Shown one piece after another: positions 8,109 to 26,652 of a DNA stretch of 32,000 nucleotides. A program made the translations under genes and the position numbers. The notes under the pieces were generated by a model. It did not search any database and was not told where the DNA came from. It saw only the letters and a program-made list of their open reading frames with translations. The DNA is from Halomicrobium mukohataei DSM 12286 (lineage in GTDB: Archaea; Halobacteriota; Halobacteria; Halobacteriales; Haloarculaceae), in NCBI RefSeq assembly GCF_000023965.1, contig NC_013202.1, positions 2,370,001 to 2,402,000 of the forward strand, written 5' to 3'. Numbering within the stretch: the first letter of the stretch is position 1; each line of letters begins with the position of its first letter.

Positions 8109-9287
8109 ATGGAAGAGCGGACGCAGGCGTACCTTCGGGGACGTTTCGGCGACCACTATCGCCGCAGCGAGTTCACCCCGCCGCCGGACGCCAACGAGCG
8201 CGAGTGGGGTTTTATTCCGTGGACCGACGGCCCCGGCGAGACGATGGTCCGACACCGCTCGCTGCTGGATCTGGGCGAGCTGGGGGAGTTCCTCCAGCGC
8301 AAGCGGCCCAAACACGTCTACTTCTCCGCGGGCCGGTACCGCGACCCCAGCGCCTCCTCGATGAGCGCCAAGGAGTGGCGGTCCTCGGACCTCGTCTTCG
8401 ACCTCGACGCCGATCACCTGCCCGCCGTCGAACTCGGCGAAGACAGCTACGCGCAGATGCTCGCAAAGTGCAAGGACGCGTTGCTCCGACTGCTCGACTT
8501 CCTGGAGAACGACTTCGGCTTCGAGGACCTGACCGTCGTCTTCTCCGGCGGCCGAGGGTACCACGTCCACGTGCGCGACGCGGGCATCCAGCAGCTCGAA
8601 CGGGACGCGCGCCGGGAGATCGTCGACTACGTCCGCGGGATCGGGCTGGAGTTCGAACAGCTCGTCGACGAGGAGGCCGTGGCCGGAACGGCGGGGCGGT
8701 CTTCGCCGGCACAGAAGCGGACGCTCTCGACCGAAGGCGGGTGGAGCCGCCGGGCTCACCGCCACGTGATGAGCGTCGTCGACGACCTGCTGGAACGCGA
8801 CGAGGAGGCGGCGATCGAGCGCCTCATGGAGTACGAGGGGATCGGCGAGGGGAAGGCGACGGCGGCGCTCAGCGCGGCCCGTCAGAACTACGACCAGCTC
8901 GCGGCCGGCAACATCGACGTGCATCCGGCCTTCTTCCAGATCGCCAAGCCGCTGATGACCGAGGTCGTCGCGATGGACAACGCCCCGATCGACGAGCCGG
9001 TGACGACGGACACGAACCGCCTGATCCGTCTGCCCGGCAGCCTCCACGGCGGCAGCGGTCTCGAAGTACGGCGGATCGAGCGCGACGACATCGACGAGTT
9101 CGATCCGCTGGTCGACGCCGTTCCGGAGACCTTCCGCGGCCACGACATCACGATCGAAGTCACTGACGGCGGCCCGGTCGAACTCGGTGGCGACAGCTTT
9201 ACATTGGAACCGGGCATTGGAACCTATCCAGAGCACGTGGGCGTCTTCGCGATGGCCCGCGGCCGCGCCGAGAAAGGCCCAGAATGA
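8109..9287 (+). CDS. priS: DNA primase small (catalytic) subunit PriS
   Basis: It has the AEP primase motifs (SDLVFDLDADH, VVFSGGRGYHVHV, RLIRLPGSLHG) and overlaps the next gene by ATGA. Confidence 0.92.
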   Translation: MEERTQAYLRGRFGDHYRRSEFTPPPDANEREWGFIPWTDGPGETMVRHRSLLDLGELGEFLQRKRPKHVYFSAGRYRDPSASSMSAKEWRSSDLVFDLDADHLPAVELGEDSYAQMLAKCKDALLRLLDFLENDFGFEDLTVVFSGGRGYHVHVRDAGIQQLERDARREIVDYVRGIGLEFEQLVDEEAVAGTAGRSSPAQKRTLSTEGGWSRRAHRHVMSVVDDLLERDEEAAIERLMEYEGIGEGKATAALSAARQNYDQLAAGNIDVHPAFFQIAKPLMTEVVAMDNAPIDEPVTTDTNRLIRLPGSLHGGSGLEVRRIERDDIDEFDPLVDAVPETFRGHDITIEVTDGGPVELGGDSFTLEPGIGTYPEHVGVFAMARGRAEKGPE

Positions 9288-10186
9288 ATCTCGACGAACT
9301 CCAGTCAGTCCAGTCCCGCGAGCGCCAGACCGACAGCCTCCAGCAGCTGCGGGAGTCGTTCTACGCCGACGCGGGGGAGTTCATCCAGCAGCTCCGCGAG
9401 GAGCGCGACAGCGTGGCCGATCGGGCCGACGACCCCTTCGACGCCCCGGAAGTCAACCGCCTGACCGACGACATCAACACCGCCGAGTCGACGGTCGAAG
9501 CGATCTACGAGCGCCGCGTCGGCAAGATCGTCAAGATGGCGTCGCTGGCCGCCGCCGACATGCCGGCCGAAGAGGAGGGGCTGACCCGCGAGGAGCGGGA
9601 CCTCTTCGAGACGCTGGTTAGCGCCATCGAGAACAACCGCGATCACGTCTTCGACGTGCTCGCTGGCGACGTGACGCCGGACGCTGTCGAGGACGCGGGA
9701 GCCGACGAGAGCCCCACGGACGAGGTGTCGTCCGAGTCCGACGACGCCAAGCCGGAACCCGAGCCGGAGCCGCCCGCCGACCCCTCGCCGAGCGACGAGC
9801 CGACGACGATCGAAGCGGCCGACCTGATGGGCAGCGACGAGAGCGTCGACCTGCCGCCCGACGCGCCGCCGGACGGTCCGCCAGAGGGGGGTGCCAGCCG
9901 GGACGACCCGCTGGCCGGCGAGCAGTCGCCGGCCTCCGACGGCGGCACGGTACCCTCGCCCCCGTCCGACGACGCGGGGCCGACCTCGCCGGACGCGCCC
10001 GACACCGGCGACGAGCCGGCGACGCCGACGATCGAGCGCGCGACCGTCCGGATCACGGACGATGTCGGCGAGATCTTCGGGATCGACCAGCGCGAGTACG
10101 ACCTCTCGACCGACGATGTGGTCACGCTCCCCGAGCAAAACGCCGCGCCGCTGGTCGATCGGGACGCCGCCGAACGCCTCGACTGA
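9284..10186 (+). CDS. ginS: GINS complex subunit (Gins51-type) with a long acidic/proline-rich internal linker
   Basis: A helical A-domain (LQQLRESFYADAGEFIQQLREE...) is followed by a C-terminal B-domain (VRITDDVGEIFGIDQREYDLSTDDVVTLPEQNAAPLVDRDAA). It is translationally coupled to priS, as is known for archaeal Gins/PriS pairs. Confidence 0.85.
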   Translation: MNLDELQSVQSRERQTDSLQQLRESFYADAGEFIQQLREERDSVADRADDPFDAPEVNRLTDDINTAESTVEAIYERRVGKIVKMASLAAADMPAEEEGLTREERDLFETLVSAIENNRDHVFDVLAGDVTPDAVEDAGADESPTDEVSSESDDAKPEPEPEPPADPSPSDEPTTIEAADLMGSDESVDLPPDAPPDGPPEGGASRDDPLAGEQSPASDGGTVPSPPSDDAGPTSPDAPDTGDEPATPTIERATVRITDDVGEIFGIDQREYDLSTDDVVTLPEQNAAPLVDRDAAERLD

Positions 10187-10264
10187 GACGGAGTATCGTC
10201 GCCGTTTGCCAGGTCGACCGCACGCAGTCGTGCGGTCGATTCGGGAACGATCGACGAGTCCGTA
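10187..10264. repeat. 78-nt palindromic element, subfamily 1 (copy E)
   Basis: The outer arms are ACGGA..CGTCG / CGACG..TCCGT and the inner perfect arms are TCGACCGCACG / CGTGCGGTCGA (loop CAGT). It starts directly after the GINS TGA stop (10184-10186) and ends 3 nt before the htrA-like stop (10268-10270). Confidence 0.85.
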
Positions 10265-10267
10265 CGA

Positions 10268-11329
10268 CTATCTCTCCGGTCGCTCGCCCAGCGTGAGATC
10301 GACCGTCTCTCGGGATCCCTCGCGGAGTACGTCGACGGCGATCGTGTCGCCCGGCGTCGTCTCCAGTGCGAGAAACGAGGAGAGGTGTTGCCGGGAGGGA
10401 GTCGGGGTCTCGTCCATCGCCACGACCACGTCGCCGCCGACGCCGACTCTGACGCCGTTGACGACTTCTTCGCCGTTCGACGGCTCCAGGACGCCCTCGG
10501 CGGGTCCGTCCGTGACGACTTCGTCGATGTAGACGCCCTCGGCCGTCCGGAGGTCGTTTGCCTCGACGATCGGCGGCGTCAGATCGGTCAGCCGGACGCC
10601 GAGGTACGAGTGGTCGTAGGCCCCGGAGTCGATCAGCGACGGGACGACCCTGCGGGTGAGCGCCGCCGAGATGGCGAAGCCGATGTTGTCGCCCCCGCCG
10701 GAGTTGATGACGCCGACGACCGTCCCGTCGAGCGTGACCAGCGGGCCGCCGCTGTTGCCCGGATTGACCGCCGCGTCGGTCTGGACGGCGTCGGGGATCG
10801 AGAAGCCGTTCGCCGCCGGGAGCGTCCGGTCGACGCCGCTGACGATCCCGGCCGAGACCGAGCCCGAGAGCCCGAACGGGTTGCCGATGGCGACCACCTC
10901 CGTCCCGACGCCGGGGTCGGCCTCGACGAAGGACAGCGGCGTGGCACTCGCCGGTTTGTCGGTGACCTCGATGACGGCCAGATCGCTGTAGGCGTCGACG
11001 GCGACGACGGCGGACTCGATCCAGCCCGACTCGCGGTAGCGGACGTAGATCTCGTCGGCGTCACCGACGACGTGTTCGTTGGTCACGAGGTAGTCGTCGC
11101 TGTAGACGAACGCACTCCCCTGACCGCCGCGACTGTTCTCGGTGTACGTACGGACCGTCGCGACGGAGTCGACCACCTGCTCGTAGACGGCGCTGTAGCC
11201 GTCGCTGGCCGATTGCCCCTCGGAGCCGGCGGTCGCGTCCAGCGCGGGGGCCTGACAGCCCGCGACGCTGGCACCGACGGCCGCCGCCATCGAACCCAAC
11301 ACGCCACGACGCGTCTGCTGATCGTCCAT
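10268..11329 (-). CDS. trypsin-like serine protease (HtrA/DegP family, S1C) with PDZ-like C-terminus and Tat/lipobox signal
   Basis: It has a TRRGVLGSMAAAVGASVAGC signal and catalytic motifs (TNEHVV..., D...AVI, GNSGGPLV). A GTTTATTC box lies about 25 nt upstream of the ATG. Confidence 0.85.
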   Translation of the reverse strand: MDDQQTRRGVLGSMAAAVGASVAGCQAPALDATAGSEGQSASDGYSAVYEQVVDSVATVRTYTENSRGGQGSAFVYSDDYLVTNEHVVGDADEIYVRYRESGWIESAVVAVDAYSDLAVIEVTDKPASATPLSFVEADPGVGTEVVAIGNPFGLSGSVSAGIVSGVDRTLPAANGFSIPDAVQTDAAVNPGNSGGPLVTLDGTVVGVINSGGGDNIGFAISAALTRRVVPSLIDSGAYDHSYLGVRLTDLTPPIVEANDLRTAEGVYIDEVVTDGPAEGVLEPSNGEEVVNGVRVGVGGDVVVAMDETPTPSRQHLSSFLALETTPGDTIAVDVLREGSRETVDLTLGERPER

Positions 11330-14122: not shown

Positions 14123-14176
14123 GTCCCGATCATGGAACGGCTGTGGCTTATCCTTGGCGGCGACGGGTCGGACTCA

Positions 14177-14256
14177 TACGGACGGTTGTAGGCGTTTACC
14201 CAGTCGACCGCACGACGGTGTGCGGTCGATCTGGTAACGACCTACAACTTTCCGTA
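14177..14256. repeat. 80-nt palindromic element, subfamily 1 (copy D)
   Basis: The outer arms are TACGGACGGTTGTAG / CTACAACTTTCCGTA and the inner arms are GTCGACCGCAC / GTGCGGTCGA plus TTACC / GGTAA. It is flanked by the direct triplets TCA (14174-14176) and TCA (14257-14259). Confidence 0.85.
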
Positions 14257-14284
14257 TCAGAAATCGGGTATCACTCTGTTACCT

Positions 14285-14777: not shown

Positions 14778-14837
14778 TGACACGAGTACGGTCCGACAGC
14801 GTAGCTTTTTCCACCTGCAAGTACCACTGTCGACTCG

Positions 14838-15167
14838 ATGGGAGTCCGGCCACCGGCAGACGACGACGGCGACGAACCGGACGCGATCGAGTTCGGTATC
14901 GCCGCGCTCGACGGAACACTGAGCGACGCCGATATCGAGTACCCGACCGACAAACAGACGCTCCGGTCCGAGATCGGGCACCGCGAGGTCCCTTTCGACG
15001 CCACGGGCCACTCGATCACGGTCGCGGAGGCGCTCGAACAGGTACCGAAGACGAGCTTCGAGAACGAGCAGGAACTGCTCAACACCCTCCACCCGGTGTT
15101 CGAGGCCCGACGCGAAGCCACGAGCAACAGTCTCCTCTCGCAGCTTCGGGCGCTGGTCCCCTTCTAG
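14838..15167 (+). CDS. conserved-looking acidic hypothetical protein
   Basis: The 109-aa product has acidic composition and good codon bias. A CTTTTTCC box lies about 30 nt upstream. I cannot name a family with confidence. Confidence 0.6.
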   Translation: MGVRPPADDDGDEPDAIEFGIAALDGTLSDADIEYPTDKQTLRSEIGHREVPFDATGHSITVAEALEQVPKTSFENEQELLNTLHPVFEARREATSNSLLSQLRALVPF

Positions 15168-16241: not shown

Positions 16242-17792
16242 CTATCCGGCACGGGGCAACTCGATCACGACGGCGGTGCCGCCCCGGTCGCTCTCTTCGA
16301 TCCAGACCGAACCGCCGTAGGAGTCGACCATCACGTCCACGAAGTACAGCCCGAACCCGGTGCCACTCGACCCGTTTCGCCGGGCACCGCGTTCGAACAC
16401 CGACGGTCGCCGCTCGGGCGGGATCCCCGGACCGTCGTCCGCGATTCGGACCCGTATCGTCTCGGCGGCCTCGGTCGCGGTCACCTCGATCGACGGCGAC
16501 GATTCGGTGTGCTCGACGGCGTTGAGCATGACGTTGGCGAACACGTCGTCGAGGAGTTCGTCGCCAGCGACGGTCACGGCCGGCACGTCGATCGACACCG
16601 AGCAGTGCTGGTCCGCGCTCGTCGGACGGCTCGACGCCGCTTCGAGCATCGCTCGCAGATCGACCGGCTCCGGGTCTGTCAGACCGTCTTCGGACAGTGT
16701 CGACAGCACCGAGCGGACCTTCTGGGTCAGCTCGACGATGTCGTCGCTCCACTCCAGGATCGTCTGTGCGTGGTCGTTGAGTTCCCCGTCGAGGTCGGCT
16801 TCGAGTCGCTCGGCCCGCGCCCGAACGACGTTCATCCCGTTGAGAATGTCGTGTCGGAGGATCCCGTTGAAGAAGTCCATCTGTTCTTTCCTGTTTTGCA
16901 GGTCGGTGATGTCGAGCCCCTCCGCGACGATCTCCGAGACGGCTCCGTCGTCGTACACCGGCCGGACCGTGACGGCCGTCTTGATGCGACTGCCGTCGGC
17001 CCCGACGTGTGTGCCCTCGAACTCGACGGTCTCGCCGCTCTCGGCCCGCTCGATCGCGTCGCGGCACTTCGCACGCTGTTCGTCGTCGTGGTTCCACCAG
17101 GGCGTCTCCGGGAAGGGATGGCCACGCACGTCGTCGACGTCGACCCCGGCGAAGGAAAGCGCCGTCTCGTTTGCACGCAGCAACGTTCCGTCCGGTTTGA
17201 GGATCCCGACGAAGACGTTCGGCGAGTCGAACGTCGCTTCGAGGAGTCGCTCGTTGCGGTCCCGCAGCGACGCGATCTGCTCCCGTTCCAGTTCCGACTC
17301 GACCCACCGACGAAGCGTGTCGAGGAGCACTCCCTGCCAGGGATCCAGCGTCGACCTCGGCTCCGACGGATCCCCGAAACAGAGCGTTCCGTAGGTCTCG
17401 CTGTCGACTTCGATCGGGACGCCGACGTACGTCTCCAGACCCCACCTGTCGTAGGCCGGATCGTCCGGTGCGCTCTCACTGACATCGAGAATCGTGTACA
17501 GATCACCGTCGGACAGCGTGTGTCGGCAGTACGTCTCGGAGAGTGGCGACGTGTCGCCGACGGCGTCGGCCGCGTTTTCGCCGGCCGCGACGGCGATCTC
17601 GTACCTGTCGTCGGTGACGGCCGAGAGATATCCGTTCGGGTATCCGAGGTGTTCACACCCGACATTGAGCACGCGCCCGATGCGGTCTTCGACAGTGCCG
17701 TCTCCGTCGGCCATCGCCGACGTGAGGTCCTGTAGCGCTTCGAGGTGACGCGTCGACGCGTCGGCCGTGTCGTCACCGCCCTCGGGGTCCAT
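16242..17792 (-). CDS. sensor histidine kinase with GAF and PAS domains
   Basis: An N-terminal GAF-like region and a PAS region are followed by a HisKA-like H-box (FFNGILRHDILNGMNVV) and HATPase_c motifs (NAVEH, DDGPGIP, GTGFGLY). I preferred the ATG at 17792 (MDPEGG) over the GTG at 17813 used by the ORF track. Confidence 0.88.
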   Translation of the reverse strand: MDPEGGDDTADASTRHLEALQDLTSAMADGDGTVEDRIGRVLNVGCEHLGYPNGYLSAVTDDRYEIAVAAGENAADAVGDTSPLSETYCRHTLSDGDLYTILDVSESAPDDPAYDRWGLETYVGVPIEVDSETYGTLCFGDPSEPRSTLDPWQGVLLDTLRRWVESELEREQIASLRDRNERLLEATFDSPNVFVGILKPDGTLLRANETALSFAGVDVDDVRGHPFPETPWWNHDDEQRAKCRDAIERAESGETVEFEGTHVGADGSRIKTAVTVRPVYDDGAVSEIVAEGLDITDLQNRKEQMDFFNGILRHDILNGMNVVRARAERLEADLDGELNDHAQTILEWSDDIVELTQKVRSVLSTLSEDGLTDPEPVDLRAMLEAASSRPTSADQHCSVSIDVPAVTVAGDELLDDVFANVMLNAVEHTESSPSIEVTATEAAETIRVRIADDGPGIPPERRPSVFERGARRNGSSGTGFGLYFVDVMVDSYGGSVWIEESDRGGTAVVIELPRAG

Positions 17793-17839
17793 GCCAGCTA
17801 GTGGGCACGACACCGCTTCAATCCTCTGGCGGCCGAGCC

Positions 17840-18272
17840 GGTAGTGTTCAGATAAGAGATCGAGAGTAGCATCGTCGAGGCACCGAAAGCCCTCGTGCAG
17901 TTGCGGTCCCGCGGCTCGCTGCGCGCGCTCCGCGTGCTTGCCGAGAGGGACTCTCCGAGTCCCTCTGGCCGTGCGAACGGGCGCTTTGCGCCCGTGAGCA
18001 GACTTTGCCGGGGTTCCCGCAAGGGCCGGCCGGTGGACCCGGCCGGCTATAACGTGACGGCTCCGCCGTCACGCAGCACTCGCCCTTTCATCCGCCAAGT
18101 TTCAGACGGTGAACCAGCCGATTCCTGGTGGATGAAAGGGCGAGGTGCGGTCGGCGGTTCTGCGGCGGCACTATCGAACGCAGTGAAGATATCCGCCACA
18201 GAACCGCCGAGCGTGCCGAGGGCTTTCGGTGTCTATATGTCAGTCAGTGCTGCTGCTTATCTGAACACCGCC
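17840..18272. mobile_element. 433-bp non-coding MITE-like element: 17-bp imperfect TIRs, 8-bp target-site duplication, highly structured interior
   Basis: The left TIR is GGTAGTGTTCAGATAAG (17840-17856). The reverse complement of the right TIR is GGCGGTGTTCAGATAAG (18256-18272), a 15/17 match with 13 contiguous. The direct repeats GCCGAGCC at 17832-17839 and 18273-18280 abut both ends. No plausible ORF is present, since the internal ORFs are Arg/Ser/Pro-rich. Confidence 0.7.
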
Positions 18273-18319
18273 GCCGAGCCCTGGCCACCGCGGTCGTCAC
18301 GAACGCGCGGCCGACGGCG

Positions 18320-19366
18320 TCACCAGGTGCCGTGGAAGGTGTCGAAGGCGAGTTCCTCCAGGTCCTCCTCGCCGATTGCGATGCGGTACTCCTGGGGCGT
18401 CAGCATCGGCTTCTTGAACTGCGGGCCGTCGTCGGTCGTGATCCGCGGGCACCCCGTGTTGACGTAGGCGTCCATCCCGAAGTTCGTCAGTCGATCCGGC
18501 GTCACCTCGTCCATCGTGATGAGGTAGGCGTCGTCGTTGTTCTCGACGATCTCGGTCGCCTGGTCCCAGCGACCCTGTCCGATCTTCGTACAGAAGATGA
18601 CGCCCCACCGCTCGGCGTCCATCGCCTTGTGGACCGAGGCGTACCGCTGTTTCATGAACTTCTCCGTGTCGGCGACGTGGACGGCGTTGTTGACCGGATC
18701 GGCGATGACGACCTTCTTGTCGGGGTGTTCCATCGCCAGCCCGAGCGGGTGGAACTTGCCACCGCCGACGTAGAGGATCTGGTCGGCGTCGACCTCGGCG
18801 CTGGCGTAGTTGCACCCGAGCACCTGTCCCTCGTGGGTCAGTCGCTCGTCGCCCTTGCGGGTGTGGACCTCGTAGTCGCGTTCTTCGAGCCAGCCGCGCA
18901 TCTCGTCGAACTTGTTCATGTGCTGGGCCGTCGTCACGAGCCCGACCTCGGGGTCCTCGTCGGGAGCGGGAAGCTCCGATTCGAGGGCCTGCTCCATGAT
19001 CGGGAACACGTCGACGTTCGAGAACAGCGGCACGTAGATGATCTTGTCCGACTCCTTCATCGGGGAGTGGCCGAAGTGAACGAACACGTCGGTCCGGCGC
19101 ATCAGGTACGTGTCCAGGTCGCAGGCACCGTAACAGGGCTGGCCCGAGATCATCACCTGCGTGTCGTCTGGCAGTTCGTCCCGAAGGTCGTCGGCGACGG
19201 CTGGTCCGCGGCGCTTCAGCCCTTCCGGGAACTGGAGGCCGACGGTCTCTGCGTCGCGGTCGGCGACTTCCTCGACGATGCGGTCGAGTTCGTAGTCCCA
19301 CTCGCGGTCGTGCTTGAGAGCGAGCCCAGTCGCCCGGAGATCCCCCTCGCTGCGGTCCTGACTCAT
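18320..19366 (-). CDS. dph2: diphthamide synthesis radical-SAM enzyme Dph2 (2-(3-amino-3-carboxypropyl)histidine synthase)
   Basis: The product has Dph1/Dph2-family sequence throughout (GLQFPEGLKRRGP...SGQPCYGACD...FVHFGHSPM...GCNYASA...VNTGCPRI). I moved the start to MSQDRSEG (19366) because the TTGTTATAC box lies inside the first codons of the longer track ORF. Confidence 0.9.
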   Translation of the reverse strand: MSQDRSEGDLRATGLALKHDREWDYELDRIVEEVADRDAETVGLQFPEGLKRRGPAVADDLRDELPDDTQVMISGQPCYGACDLDTYLMRRTDVFVHFGHSPMKESDKIIYVPLFSNVDVFPIMEQALESELPAPDEDPEVGLVTTAQHMNKFDEMRGWLEERDYEVHTRKGDERLTHEGQVLGCNYASAEVDADQILYVGGGKFHPLGLAMEHPDKKVVIADPVNNAVHVADTEKFMKQRYASVHKAMDAERWGVIFCTKIGQGRWDQATEIVENNDDAYLITMDEVTPDRLTNFGMDAYVNTGCPRITTDDGPQFKKPMLTPQEYRIAIGEEDLEELAFDTFHGTW

Positions 19367-19825: not shown

Positions 19826-20224
19826 ATGAGCATCGAGTCCGAGACCTCCGATTCGGCCGTCGACAGCCACGTCGAAGAGATCGCCGCCGAGTTCGGCGAC
19901 GCGATCACACAGCTACCGGTGTACCAGCGCTTCGCCGAAGCCAAAACGGCCGTCGAGAACGACGAACAGGCCCAGGAGAAGATCGAGGAGTTCGAGTCCA
20001 TTCGCGAGGAGTTCATGCTCGCACGCCAGACCGGACAGGCCGACCAGGAAGCGCTCAGAGAGCTCCAGGCCGCACAGGAAGAGCTCCACGACCTGCCGGT
20101 GATGAGCGAGTACCTCGAAGTGCAGAGCGAACTCGAACTGCGTCTGCAGGAACTCAACGAAGTCGTCTCCGAGCAGCTCGTCGTCGACTTCGGCGAGAAG
20201 GCCGGCGGCTGCTGCGAGGACTGA
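19826..20224 (+). CDS. YlbF/YmcA-like helical protein with C-terminal Cys-Cys
   Basis: The 132-aa product is an acidic helical protein (PVYQRFAEAKTAVENDEQAQEKIEEFESIREEF...) that resembles the YlbF family. It ends in GGCCED. Confidence 0.6.
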   Translation: MSIESETSDSAVDSHVEEIAAEFGDAITQLPVYQRFAEAKTAVENDEQAQEKIEEFESIREEFMLARQTGQADQEALRELQAAQEELHDLPVMSEYLEVQSELELRLQELNEVVSEQLVVDFGEKAGGCCED

Positions 20225-20303
20225 TACGGTTTCTTGTAGTTGCTTACCGGTGATCGTCGCCACGGAGTAGACGATCACCGGTAAATCGCTACAATAATCC
20301 GTA
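20225..20303. repeat. 79-nt palindromic element, subfamily 1 (copy A, best preserved)
   Basis: The outer arms TACGGTTTCTTGTAG / CTACAATAATCCGTA pair at 13 of 15 positions. The inner arms TTACCGGTGATCGTC / GACGATCACCGGTAA pair at 15 of 15, with an 11-nt loop. It is flanked by TGA (20222-20224, the stop codon of the upstream gene) and TGA (20304-20306). Confidence 0.9.
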
Positions 20304-20649
20304 TGACGCCGCGGCTCGCGATCGTGTCGCTGCTTTCTTCGCGGAGTGACGACGGCGACCGACGGCCGGCGAGTAGCGCGTCGGCGGGCCGCCAGTATCG
20401 TCGGCTGGTCCCGGTGTCGTCGTCCGAAGTCTGCCGCCATTCGTGCTATCAGAGTCTGAAATGGGGCGCGAAGGTCGCTGCTACTGGCGTTCGTCGGGGG
20501 CGTCGCGAACAGCCACTCCCCGGGCCACAGGTGGGCTTGAGGCGTCTGGAAACCGCCACAGTTCCCGAATACAGAACCTGATAATTCGGCGCGTAGTCTT
20601 ATTACCGAGTAGTGGCCACCGGTAGACAAGCGGAGCGAGTACTATTCAA

Positions 20650-21321
20650 ATGCAACAGAGTTGGCAACGCGACCGAGCGGGTGACCGCGGTCAGGTCGGG
20701 ATCGGGACGCTGATCGTGTTCATCGCGATGGTCCTCGTCGCGGCGATCGCGGCGGGCGTACTGATCAACACCGCGGGCTTTCTCCAGACGAACGCAGAAC
20801 AGAGCGGCCAACAGAGCAGCCAACAGGTGACCAACCGCCTCCAGGTCGTCGACATCGCCGGGTCTGACATCGTGAAAGACGGCGAGGGCTTCGAGGTGAC
20901 GACGGTCGACGTGACCGTCAAGCGAGCGCCGGGCTCGGGCAACGTGGACCTGTCGACGACGACCGCCCAGTGGGTCTCGTCGGGCGGCAGCTACAACGTC
21001 CTCAGCTACACGGCGGCCGAGGGATCGGGCGGATCAAGTGGTGACGCCGGGTTCATCACGTCGACGCTGCAGGACGACGACGGCTCGATCTCGAACAGCA
21101 ACGCCCTCAACGACCAGGCCGACCGGGCGATCATCAGATTCCAGACCGACTCGGTTCCCACCAGCGAAGAGGAAGACGACCTGAACGGGAAGCTCGTCAG
21201 CGGGGACCTCACCGAGGGATCGTCCGCCGAGATCAGGCTGACCACCCAGGCCGGCGGCGAGACGACCGCCACGGTCGTCGTGCCCGAGTCTCTCTCGGGC
21301 AAGTCCGCCGTCTCGCTCTAG
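20650..21321 (+). CDS. archaellin (archaeal flagellin)
   Basis: It has the hallmark N-terminus [34 protein letters not shown], followed by a Ser/Thr/Gly/Asp-rich variable domain. Confidence 0.9.
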
Positions 21322-24476: not shown

Positions 24477-24609
24477 CGGTCCCGCGGTGACATCGGTGTC
24501 AGCACAGACCTTTGACCCTCGGCGACCTACGTCGCCGTATCCGTCACCGCGACGGCACCACCATGTCACGACACAGAACCACGCCGACACGGACAGCCGG
24601 GGCCGACAG

Positions 24610-25254
24610 ATGAGTGAGCCACACGCCGACCAGCCGGTCCACACCGCGGGCACGCCGCTGGACGACGCCAGCGTCGCCGTCGTGATGATCCACGGCCGCG
24701 GAGCCAGAGCCGAGGGATTTCTCCAGCTCGCAGACGAGATCGCCGTCGACGGCGTCGCGTATCTCGCACCGCAGGCACAGCGCGGGAGCTGGTACCCCAA
24801 CCGTTTCGTCGACCCGATCGAGAGCAACGAGCCACACCTCACCGCCGCACTCGGCGTCGTCGCGGACACGATCGAAAGAGCCCTCGCAGCGGGCCTCGAC
24901 CACGAACAGATCGTCCTGATGGGGTTCTCTCAGGGTGCCTGTCTCGCCAGCGAGTACGTCGCCCGGAACCCCCGCGCGTACGGTGGACTCGCCGCCTTCA
25001 GCGGCGGACTCATCGGACCGCTCGGGATGGCGTTCGACCACGACGGGGAACTCGACGGGATGCCGGCCTTCTTCGGCTGTAGCGACTCCGATCCGCACAT
25101 TCCGGAGACTCGCGTCACCGAGTCTGCGGACGTGTTCGAGCGCCTCGGAGCCACCGTCGAGACGCGACTCTACGAGGGCATGGGCCACACGATCGTCGAC
25201 GACGAGGTCGAGTACGTCGTCGATCTGCTGTCGACGCTGACGGGTTCGGACTGA
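24610..25254 (+). CDS. phospholipase/carboxylesterase family alpha/beta hydrolase
   Basis: It has the GFSQGA nucleophile elbow, a downstream D and H (GMGHTI), and VVMIHGRGA. I chose the start at MSEPHADQP (24610). Confidence 0.85.
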   Translation: MSEPHADQPVHTAGTPLDDASVAVVMIHGRGARAEGFLQLADEIAVDGVAYLAPQAQRGSWYPNRFVDPIESNEPHLTAALGVVADTIERALAAGLDHEQIVLMGFSQGACLASEYVARNPRAYGGLAAFSGGLIGPLGMAFDHDGELDGMPAFFGCSDSDPHIPETRVTESADVFERLGATVETRLYEGMGHTIVDDEVEYVVDLLSTLTGSD

Positions 25255-25329
25255 TACGGATTCTCGTAGCAGTTTCCCGGTGATCACCTCGTGGCGACGA
25301 TTGCCGGTGAGCACCTACGAGAGTCCGTA
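25255..25329. repeat. 75-nt palindromic element, subfamily 1 (copy B1)
   Basis: The outer arms TACGGATTCTCGTAG / CTACGAGAGTCCGTA form 15 pairs including one G.U. The core is related to copy A in inverted order. It is flanked by TGA (25252-25254, the esterase stop) and TGA (25330-25332). Confidence 0.85.
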
Positions 25330-25332
25330 TGA

Positions 25333-25409
25333 TACTGTCGACTGTCCCGTCGTGAAGCGATTCGCCACCCGGTGTGGCGAAATCGATCACAGTGGGACAG
25401 CCGGCGGTA
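25333..25409. repeat. 77-nt palindromic element, subfamily 2 (copy B2)
   Basis: The paired arms are CTGTCCC / GGGACAG, GTGA / TCAC, CGATT / AATCG and CGCCA / TGGCG. It starts directly after the TGA that also flanks B1. Confidence 0.8.
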
Positions 25410-25502: not shown

Positions 25503-26510
25503 ATGCTGTCAGACGAGTTCGGTCGCGAGGTCTCGGGCGTCCGCGTCTCGCTGACCGATCGGTGTAACTTCGACTGCGTCTACTGCCACAACGAGGGGCT
25601 GGGAGACACGCGCGGCCCACTGGCGGCCCAGGACGACGAGCTCTCGACGGACCGGGTCGTCGACTTCCTCGAAGTGGCCGCGGACCTCGGCGTCGACTCG
25701 GTGAAGTTCACCGGCGGGGAACCGCTGCTCAGAGAGGACCTCGCCGAGATCGTCGAGCGGACGCCCGACGAGATGGCGGTGTCCCTGACGACGAACGGGA
25801 CCTACCTTCCCGGGCGAGCGTCCGAACTCGTCGACGCCGGACTCGAACGAGTCAACATCTCCCAGGACGCACTCGACCGGGAGGCGTTCGCCGAACTCAC
25901 CCAGAGTGGCGCGTACGACCGCGTGCTGGAGGGCGTCGAGGCGGCGGTCGACGCCGGACTCGCCCCGGTGAAGATCAACATGGTGGTGTTCGAGCCGACG
26001 GCGGGGTACGTTCCGGAGATGGTCGATCACGTCGTCGAGAACGAGGGGCTTCGCCTCCAGCTCATCGAGTACATGCCCGAGTTGGCCGGCCATCCGGAGT
26101 GGGCGATCGACATCGATCGCGTCCACGACTGGCTGTCCGAACGGGCCGACCGGATCGAGCACCGCCAGATGCACGACCGGCGGCGGTACTTCGTCGCGAG
26201 CGACGACGGCGACCGCGAGGGGATGGTCGAGATCGTCGACCCGGTGGGCAACGAGACGTTCTGTGCGAACTGCCACCGGGTGCGACTCACCCACGACGGC
26301 TACCTGAAGGGCTGTCTGAACCGCAACGACGACCTCCGGTCGATCGGCGAGACGAAGTCTCGCATGCGCGATGCGTTCCGGGCGACCGTGGCCAGCCGCG
26401 TCCCCTACTACGGCGAGTACATGGTCGAGACCGAGGACGGCTGGGAACGCGACGAGCGGTACCGCGACGGGGAGGGCGACCGCGCCCCCTACGCCTACAC
26501 CGAGGACTGA
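25503..26510 (+). CDS. moaA: GTP 3',8-cyclase MoaA (radical SAM, molybdenum cofactor biosynthesis)
   Basis: It has the CNFDCVYC radical-SAM cluster motif, a C-terminal [18 protein letters not shown] second-cluster motif, and FTGGEPLLR. Confidence 0.95.
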
Positions 26511-26587
26511 TACGGGCGGTCGTCGGAATCTCCCCGCTTTCGCCGCCCTGGGAGGCGAATCGATTCACGACGGGACAGCCGACGGTA
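26511..26587. repeat. 77-nt palindromic element, subfamily 2 (copy C)
   Basis: One arm (reverse complement TACCGTCGGCTGTCCCGTCGTGAATCGATTCGCCTCCC.GG) matches B2 at about 47 of 52 positions, while the other arm is decayed. It starts directly after the moaA TGA (26508-26510) and is followed by TCA. Confidence 0.8.
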
Positions 26588-26652
26588 TCACGTGCCCCGT
26601 CGCGGCCTCGCGAAGTCGTGGCTTTTTGCCCTCCGGCGGCCTGTGTTCGAGT

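Follow-up and report, generated by a model that had tools for sequence, protein, structure and literature searches.

The described systems closest to the locus reported here include several from haloarchaea. ISfinder lists a haloarchaeal miniature inverted-repeat transposable element (MITE) of the IS6 family, MITEHarch3 (PMC6807381), so this kind of element is already known, while in Haloquadratum walsbyi the SMR-A repeats of ~110 bp, the SMR-B repeats of down to 80 bp and MITEs mostly of <500 bp have been described (PMC3119063). The mobilisation of the Haloquadratum SMRs is unknown, SMR-A targets the ends of IS605-type elements and of PATEs, and the PATEs possess neither terminal inverted repeats (TIRs) nor target duplications (PMC3119063). 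We analyzed a stretch of 32,000 nucleotides from the archaeon Halomicrobium mukohataei DSM 12286 (NC_013202.1, positions 2,370,001 to 2,402,000 of the forward strand), termed the window, whose numbering is used throughout unless a locus (L) is named. The analysis revealed that a 433-bp element at 17840–18272, with TIRs of 17 bp and a target duplication of 8 bp, is a MITE of the IS6 type in which a palindromic repeat resembling REPINs is carried. An earlier sequence-only reading had explained the interior of this element as one closed multi-hairpin architecture and possible structured RNA cargo, which is partly right: its dense structure and the compensatory changes in two main stems of the repeat were found, whereas the single closed architecture resembling a large non-coding RNA (ncRNA), and with it the RNA cargo, was not supported.

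The element has TIRs of the form GG..GTGTTCAGATAAG in common with the insertion sequences (IS) of the ISH29/ISH14 group, the archaeal IS6 branch, and with their MITEs, and like these MITEs it is short and non-coding, carries an 8-bp duplication and is present or absent among relatives. It differs from ISH29-type IS in its interior, which has no IS similarity and consists of an independent palindromic repeat with added hairpins, and MITEHarch3 is likened to it by class only (an IS6 MITE), not by sequence. The Haloquadratum SMR-A/B, MITEs and PATEs are likewise haloarchaeal, transposase-less, ~80–500 bp in length, built with inverted repeats and often nested in mobile elements, whereas the present repeat is located inside an IS6-type MITE or alone, a comparison made by description and not by sequence. 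From the IS200/IS605-derived PATEs, which have subterminal hairpins and no TIRs or duplication, the element of the window is also set apart by its TIRs and its 8-bp duplication.

A scan of the genome collection with the TIRs retrieved at least 120 loci, which belong mostly to Halobacteria and often contain paired matches. The TIR pairs that are ~697 bp apart enclose an open reading frame (ORF) matching NCBIfam transpos_IS6 (1e-48) and Pfam DDE_Tnp_IS240, with its stop codon within the right TIR, and the close relatives of this transposase bear the RefSeq name 'IS6-like element ISH29 family transposase'. About 20 shorter TIR pairs (205–440 bp) are non-coding, with clear 8-bp duplications in at least ten, and the element of the window is thereby established as a MITE of the archaeal IS6/ISH29 group. 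Its internal ORFs (50–190 aa) have no Pfam match and its similarity to the IS stops at the TIRs, which rules out a decayed IS6 transposase gene as its interior. The element had no BLASTN match in PLSDB plasmids or in phage records, and among the 15 matches listed for the ISH29-like IS, H. urmianum alone has a degenerate plasmid copy.

Two minus-strand genes flank the element, which lies between the stop codon of dph2 (18320–19366) and the start of a gene for a GAF-PAS histidine kinase (16242–17813), 40 nt (18281–18320) 3′ of the dph2 stop codon. In H. katesii, Halomicrobium sp. CP044129 and one metagenome contig, the dph2–kinase spacer has only 86 bp with a single GGCTCGGC (empty sites L125, L127 and L129, with one copy of the 8-mer), while CP045142 is like the window and has exactly the 433-bp element with the duplicated 8-mer. 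The insertion in the H. mukohataei lineage is recent and was accompanied by an 8-bp duplication. A sister copy with its own duplication, AAAGAAAC, was found elsewhere in H. katesii (L102:6034–6353) and is 98–100% identical to the element: the block 18076–18272 aligns to it with 98.5% identity, and 18151–18212 is identical in 62 of 62 nt, but L102 lacks the stretches 17942–18003 and 18023–18073. Two Halomicrobium genomes without the MITE carry a different extra segment of 39 bp (..GACGACCGTCGCGGCTTTTTGCCACGAGTCCTCG..) in the same spacer (L126:3548–3672 and L128:3548–3672), and this spacer is therefore indel-prone.

The interior comprises two hairpin units of a ~100-nt type joined tail to tail, unit A at 17881–18099 on the plus strand and unit B at 18125–18231 on the minus strand, with a central spacer of 25 nt between the unit tails 18079–18099 and 18125–18144. 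Both units belong to a repeat family defined by a head (GAAAGCCC), a tail (CCCTTTCA..), two stems and apical islands (CTCGCTGCGC / GTGCTTGCGTCG), and its unit has the form 5′-(C)GAAAGCCCC - stem 1 - stem 2 - CTCGCTGCGC.CCTC ... CTGCGGTGCTTGCGTCG - stem 2′ - stem 1′ - GCCCCTTTCAGTCCCGCCCG-3′. Unit A has the head, tail, two stems and apical islands of the family as a Halomicrobium variant, and unit B has head, tail and stem with an apex of a non-canonical type (..GATATCCGCC..). The features of the element and its flanks are as follows, with L081 a further H. katesii copy:

17832–17839, no strand: left copy of the target-site duplication, GCCGAGCC, exactly repeated at 18273–18280 and single in the empty sites.
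17840–17856, plus strand: left TIR, GGTAGTGTTCAGATAAG, of IS6/ISH29 type, with the same termini on the ~697-bp IS copies encoding the IS6 transposase.
17857–17880, no strand: left linker, 24 nt, AT-richer than its surroundings; linkers are ~22–25 nt in IS6-TIR copies of other genera.
17881–17895, plus strand: head motif of unit A, CACCGAAAGCCCTCG, corresponding to the family-wide head motif (C)GAAAGCCC.
17896–17941, plus strand: 5′ arm of stem 1 of unit A, TGCAGTTGCGG, and left apical half, TCCCGCGGCTCGCTGCGCGC...GTGCTTGC, aligning to the family islands CTCGCTGCGC / GTGCTTGC.
17942–18003, plus strand: block a, a 62-bp insertion with hairpins 1 and 2 (17944–17966, 17972–18000), not in L102, L081 or canonical units.
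18004–18022, plus strand: right apical part of unit A and start of the 3′ arm of stem 1, TTTGCCGGGGTTCCCGCAA, aligning to TTCGCCGGGGTTCCCGCAA in L102.
18023–18073, plus strand: block b, a 51-bp insertion with hairpins 3 and 4 (18025–18047, 18053–18073), not in L102 or L081, where CCCGCAA is directly followed by CTGCA.
18074–18099, plus strand: remainder of the 3′ arm of stem 1 (CAGCA) and tail of unit A, CTCGCCCTTTCATCCGCCAAG, a Halomicrobium variant of the family tail GCCCCTTTCAGTCCCGCCCG.
18100–18124, no strand: central spacer, TTTCAGACGGTGAACCAGCCGATTC, like the spacer class ..GGTTGACCAGCCGGC.. of other dimers.
18125–18231, minus strand: unit B, inverted; in plus-strand order the tail CTGGTGGATGAAAGGGCGAG, the stem 18145–18171 / 18190–18216 and the head CGAGGGCTTTCGGTG at 18217–18231.
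18232–18255, no strand: right linker, 24 nt.
18256–18272, minus strand: right TIR, reverse complement GGCGGTGTTCAGATAAG.
18273–18280, no strand: right copy of the target-site duplication, GCCGAGCC.

The helices described from the sequence are all present, and the two-unit layout accounts for the long ones. The TIR helix spans 17839–17856 / 18256–18273, and the perfect second helix of 15 bp (17881–17895 / 18217–18231, or 18 nt at 94% when extended), which had been taken to close the element, is the pairing of the two head motifs (CACCGAAAGCCCTCG); the symmetric 24 x 24 nt loop between these two helices corresponds to the linkers 17857–17880 and 18232–18255. The 20-bp hairpin at 18077–18147, of which 18074–18099 supplies the 5′ strand, is the pairing of the two tail motifs (CTCGCCCTTTCATCCGCCA), and the hairpin of 17 positions at 18152–18209 is the own stem of unit B. 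The long helices are thus the heads and tails of two inverted copies of a repeat unit instead of one large ncRNA-like fold. All six local hairpins were found where they had been placed, and the loop common to two of them is TCC closed by C-G. Their arms are:

17944–17953 / 17957–17966
17972–17984 / 17988–18000
18025–18033 / 18039–18047
18053–18061 / 18065–18073
18079–18110 / 18113–18144
18134–18168 / 18193–18227

The hairpin-rich structure is real and well past chance, on the plus and minus strands alike. As RNA, the stretch of 433–435 nt folds to −275 kcal/mol on the plus strand (z = −13.4) and to −265 kcal/mol on the minus strand (z = −13.2), the fold with DNA parameters gives z = −13.5, and in each of the three folds none of 100 shuffles folded as well as the element. 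In 469 kb of comparison DNA with a high GC content, mostly from haloarchaea and with the window included, there are only 52 perfect hairpins (stem ≥9 bp, loop 3–5 nt); three of them are located in the 433-bp element, and about 23 of the 52 fall in IS6-type MITE or IS copies, which make up an estimated ~2% of that DNA.

Four of the six local hairpins are carried by the two extra blocks, two by block a (62 bp) and two by block b (51 bp), which distinguish the copy of the window from L102, L081 and canonical units. The sequence-only reading had named nested insertions of smaller palindromic repeats as an outcome against its proposal, and the absence of these four hairpins from the 98–100% identical L102 is of that kind. 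A slippage event that would have deleted block a between the TTGCC repeats on its two sides was ruled out, since L102 keeps the canonical GTGCTTGCTTCGCCGGGG, so that insertion in the lineage of the window is the simpler reading. Block a has no other copy in the ~1.6 Mb sampled, save a 16-nt core in L093, and an origin of the small hairpins from dispersed mobile repeats was also ruled out, as the hairpins are unique in the same sample save for cores of 15–16 nt. Similar unique hairpins with 9–10-bp stems and 3-nt loops, often paired as blocks of 50–60 bp, decorate other copies, as in L047 compared with L078, and in L073, L158, L206 and L017/L155, as well as one IS6 copy of 756 bp. The small hairpins are dynamic, dispensable add-ons.

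The decorated IS6 copy (L120:2607–3362, Halobacterium sp. KA-4) has 756 bp against the usual ~697 bp and harbors adjacent perfect hairpins at 2843–2865 and 2872–2894, which together (52 bp) probably explain most of the 59 extra bp; additions of small hairpins are therefore not confined to MITE interiors.

The repeat is far more widespread than the MITE that carries it in the window. Internal similarity is common to MITEs with the same TIRs across genera, and searches with a covariance model of the unit defined in the present analysis (R1) yielded 36 units from genome loci totalling 584 kb and 124 from metagenome loci totalling 613 kb, while an unbiased metagenome scan with the canonical tail (exact 19-mer) retrieved at least 120 loci. 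The usual form is a tail-to-tail dimer of 220–370 bp with ends of the type (G)AACAGCNNGAAAGCCCC, and the tail-to-tail layout of the window was also observed in 52 metagenome dimers. The model scores intact units at up to 124 bits and the uninterrupted copies L102 and L081 at 75 and 73 bits, whereas the region of unit A in the window, interrupted by the two inserted blocks, reaches only 18.5 bits (E = 0.42; match 17881–17982), a low score due partly to block b splitting the 3′ arm of stem 1. IS6 TIRs occur near only ~5 of 51 dimers, all of the ..CACCTCGAAAGCCCC subfamily, and in the other subfamilies the TIR signal was not above the orientation control; the repeat is therefore independent of the MITE, and its IS6-TIR version is a minority vehicle. 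Units were also found on 20 haloarchaeal plasmids, among them pHV4 of Haloferax volcanii. In viral contigs there were no units, the 20 matches of 15-mers all being chance matches that do not fit the model. A search for a larger, autonomous version with the dimer ends as its borders found none, and there is no conserved promoter outside the element ends. When the 1104 ORFs within 2 kb of units were clustered, this limited sample contained no recurrent transposase or recombinase family, and only common sensor-kinase paralogues recur. The empty-site search for TIR-less dimers yielded one locus only, of ~80% identity and too diverged to define the ends. No description of the family was found in the searchable literature by topic or by sequence string, and this abundant haloarchaeal repeat family is apparently undescribed.

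Several individual copies depart from the usual form. In Haloarchaeobius iranensis (L025:2488–3094), the inverted units are ~270 nt apart against the usual 16–28 nt, with no IS6 TIR near and an additional partial head copy upstream. Solo copies of the terminal motif ACAGCNNGAAAGCCCC lie outside many dimers, spaced ~50–60 nt and some of them exact tandem duplications, for example in L174, L178, L179, L195, L202, L212, L235, L253 and L267. On Haloferax volcanii pHV4 (NC_013966.1, ~14,800–14,911; L270/L271), a solo canonical unit scoring 99 bits is located ~390 nt upstream of the transposase gene of the IS110-like ISHvo9, on the same strand, which may reflect insertion of the IS110 element into a dimer or coincidence.

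The bacterial REP/REPIN/BIME, ERIC and Correia elements are also short, abundant, intergenic palindromes, and they share with the present repeat the inverted doublet and the hairpin potential on both strands. The present repeat differs in being archaeal, in its unit of ~100 nt with two stems and conserved loops, in the bracketing of one subfamily by IS6 TIRs, and in lacking a RAYT-like gene, or any other gene associated with it, among the 1104 ORFs of the limited sample. For the bacterial elements RNA-level roles are known, while the likeness drawn here comes from sequence alone. The attC sites of integrons, in which structure is conserved and sequence is not, likewise have short inverted core motifs at the ends of a variable palindrome, whereas the present units occur as inverted dimers with no cassette arrays and no integrase near them; attC is an analogy only.

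Compensatory substitutions, by which the sequence-only reading proposed to judge an RNA fold, were indeed observed in the two main stems of the unit. The alignments of 36 and 120 units are biased towards the model by having been fitted to it, but the unfitted MAFFT alignment agrees: double changes occur at 17 of 29 pairs in the latter (11 units) and at 23 of 29 in the 36 genome units (90% of cells paired), while the 120 distinct metagenome units have 92.7% of cells paired, double changes at 20 of 29 pairs and 679 double-change cells. In these 120 units the covariation score was 0.469, against ≤0.062 in slid controls and a shuffle average of 0.131. The covariation refers to the unit stems only, as the four small hairpins have no homologues, and its strength across the 120 units indicates that hairpin formation is maintained. 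It is also practically wobble-free. Among cluster representatives, the stem pairs comprised 1770 Watson-Crick pairs, 22 G.T (1.1%), 42 A.C (2.2%) and 100 other mismatches (5.2%), wobble thus being rare on both strands, unlike in typical RNA helices.

A strand-specific RNA signature, that is, G.U tolerance on one strand or a better-folding strand, was not seen, and the dimer is strand-symmetric. Rfam gave no match at gathering score for the window, with only chance-level matches up to E = 10, and none in eight loci with canonical units. Nor is the architecture conserved among close copies, as the lack of four of the six local hairpins in L102 demonstrates. The Watson-Crick purity, the absence of Rfam matches, the symmetry and the equal folding of both strands favour DNA-level palindromy, and a DNA-level palindrome appears more likely than an RNA gene.

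It is probable, in our assessment, that the element is an ISH29-type MITE with a passenger palindromic repeat and two lineage-specific hairpin blocks, whose stems are kept as DNA palindromes. The closed multi-hairpin architecture is the sum of inverted repeats in DNA that are nested at three levels, namely the TIRs, the heads and tails of the units, and the stems within each unit together with the recently added hairpins, and it is probably not one evolved RNA fold. Recognition of the 17-bp TIRs would fall to an ISH29-like DDE transposase acting in trans, and the insertion into the dph2/sensor-kinase spacer of the H. mukohataei lineage duplicated 8 bp of target. The interior would be passenger DNA; it consists of one complete tail-to-tail copy of the widespread haloarchaeal repeat with the two added blocks of two small perfect hairpins each. 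Its stems would most likely be kept either by a DNA hairpin or cruciform used in the maintenance or spread of the repeat, or by arm-to-arm correction.

Several points weigh against this explanation. No ISH29-like transposase gene was demonstrated in the H. mukohataei genome, where no genome scan was aimed at one; it does not account for where the small hairpins came from, no source repeat having been found in the ~1.6 Mb sampled; and the spread of the 90% of dimers without IS6 TIRs is unaccounted for, with no autonomous version and no recurrent neighbour gene. Strong covariation with conserved loops is also a signature of functional RNA, a G.T position in the apical helix is conserved in 106 of 112 units, and the weak 2:1 excess of A.C over G.T, equivalent to antisense G.U (p ~0.02), could hint at directional transcription. 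A possible, if doubtful, reading is broader, with the unit as a functional folded nucleic acid of an undescribed haloarchaeal mobile or regulatory class, acting as a single-stranded DNA (ssDNA) site for some enzyme or as a small RNA whose transcription would run outward from the dimer centre; the IS6-TIR MITE of the window would then be one vehicle that captured the unit.

A stable structured RNA, trans-acting or related to the element, that would be produced from one unit, from both or from the entire interior seems quite improbable. The extreme stability of the fold, the family-wide covariation with conserved loop sequences and the A.C excess would suit such an ncRNA, and the AT-rich central spacers of the type GGCCTAAAAAC in some dimers could act as a TATA-like box, yet there is neither an Rfam match nor a conserved promoter outside the element ends, both strands of the symmetric dimer fold alike, and wobble pairs account for only 1–2% of the pairs in the stems whichever strand is read, less than the other mismatches. 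In the window, moreover, block b splits the stem of unit A, the unit A region scores 18.5 bits, and the near-identical L102 is without four of the hairpins. An improbable role in cis may be conceived by analogy with bacterial REP, ERIC and Correia, in which the co-transcribed palindromes would be 3′-end stabilisers, terminators or insulators in either orientation. Such a role would fit the position 40 nt downstream of the dph2 stop codon, the ability of Watson-Crick palindromes to fold in both orientations, a degenerate dimer between convergent genes in L211, and the second palindromic family of the window described below, whose copies at four real genes begin 4 nt ahead of the stop codon. The tail TGA of solo units, however, serves as a stop codon in 14 of 77 cases against 17 of 77 and 8 of 77 in control frames, which is no enrichment, the related species have the 86-bp spacer without the element, and archaeal termination proceeds via T-tracts rather than hairpins.

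Recognition of the folded hairpin as an ssDNA recombination or transposition site, by a tyrosine/HUH-type or an IS110-type enzyme, would explain a conserved structure with variable sequence, and this reading, modelled on the attC sites of integrons, on REP/REPIN elements and on the ends of IS200/IS605, is unlikely but agrees with the conserved head and tail motifs around sequence-variable stems, the strict Watson-Crick pairing and the REPIN-like inverted doublet. The 1104 flanking ORFs include no recurrent recombinase or transposase, neither an autonomous version nor units in viral contigs were found, and TIR-less dimers gave no usable empty sites. The pHV4 solo unit abutting ISHvo9 would point in the same direction as the doublet, although it is a single case, and an IS110/bridge-RNA link through ISHvo9 was set aside, there being this one adjacency only and no second half-unit beyond the IS.

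The window contains a second palindromic family of ~95 nt, of the form GGACTGATACGG..GTAG..TTACC-[variable stem-loop]-GGTAA..CTAC..CCGTAT, with copies at:

10180–10275
14170–14265
20215–20313
25248–25345
26504–26590

A real gene upstream ends on the TGA of GGACTGA in four of these five copies, and the genes concerned are:

9284–10186: Gins51-like
19826–20224: YlbF-like
24487–25254: carboxylesterase
25503–26510: MoaA-like

The IS6-MITE L081:6918–7181 of H. katesii also has this second repeat as its right half. The motif GGAYTGAWASGG is common to the left subterminal region of the ISH29-like IS (GGATTGAAAGGTG; L005:965–978), to the unit tail (GGGACTGAAAGGGG, in Halomicrobium GGATGAAAGGG; window 18125–18144) and to the 5′ end of the second family (GGACTGATACGG; window 20218–20229). 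Among the neighbouring genes, the Dph2 protein of the window is identical to WP_015763442 / ACV48600, and an archaellin gene is located at 20650–21321.

At this locus, the reading as a large structured RNA gives way to a recent ISH29-type MITE with layered DNA palindromes. More widely, the analysis exposes an abundant repeat family of the Halobacteria with unusually clean covariation and conserved loops, for which DNA-level recognition, arm-to-arm correction and an RNA role are the candidate keepers of the hairpins, and the copy in the genetically tractable Haloferax volcanii makes this question directly testable.

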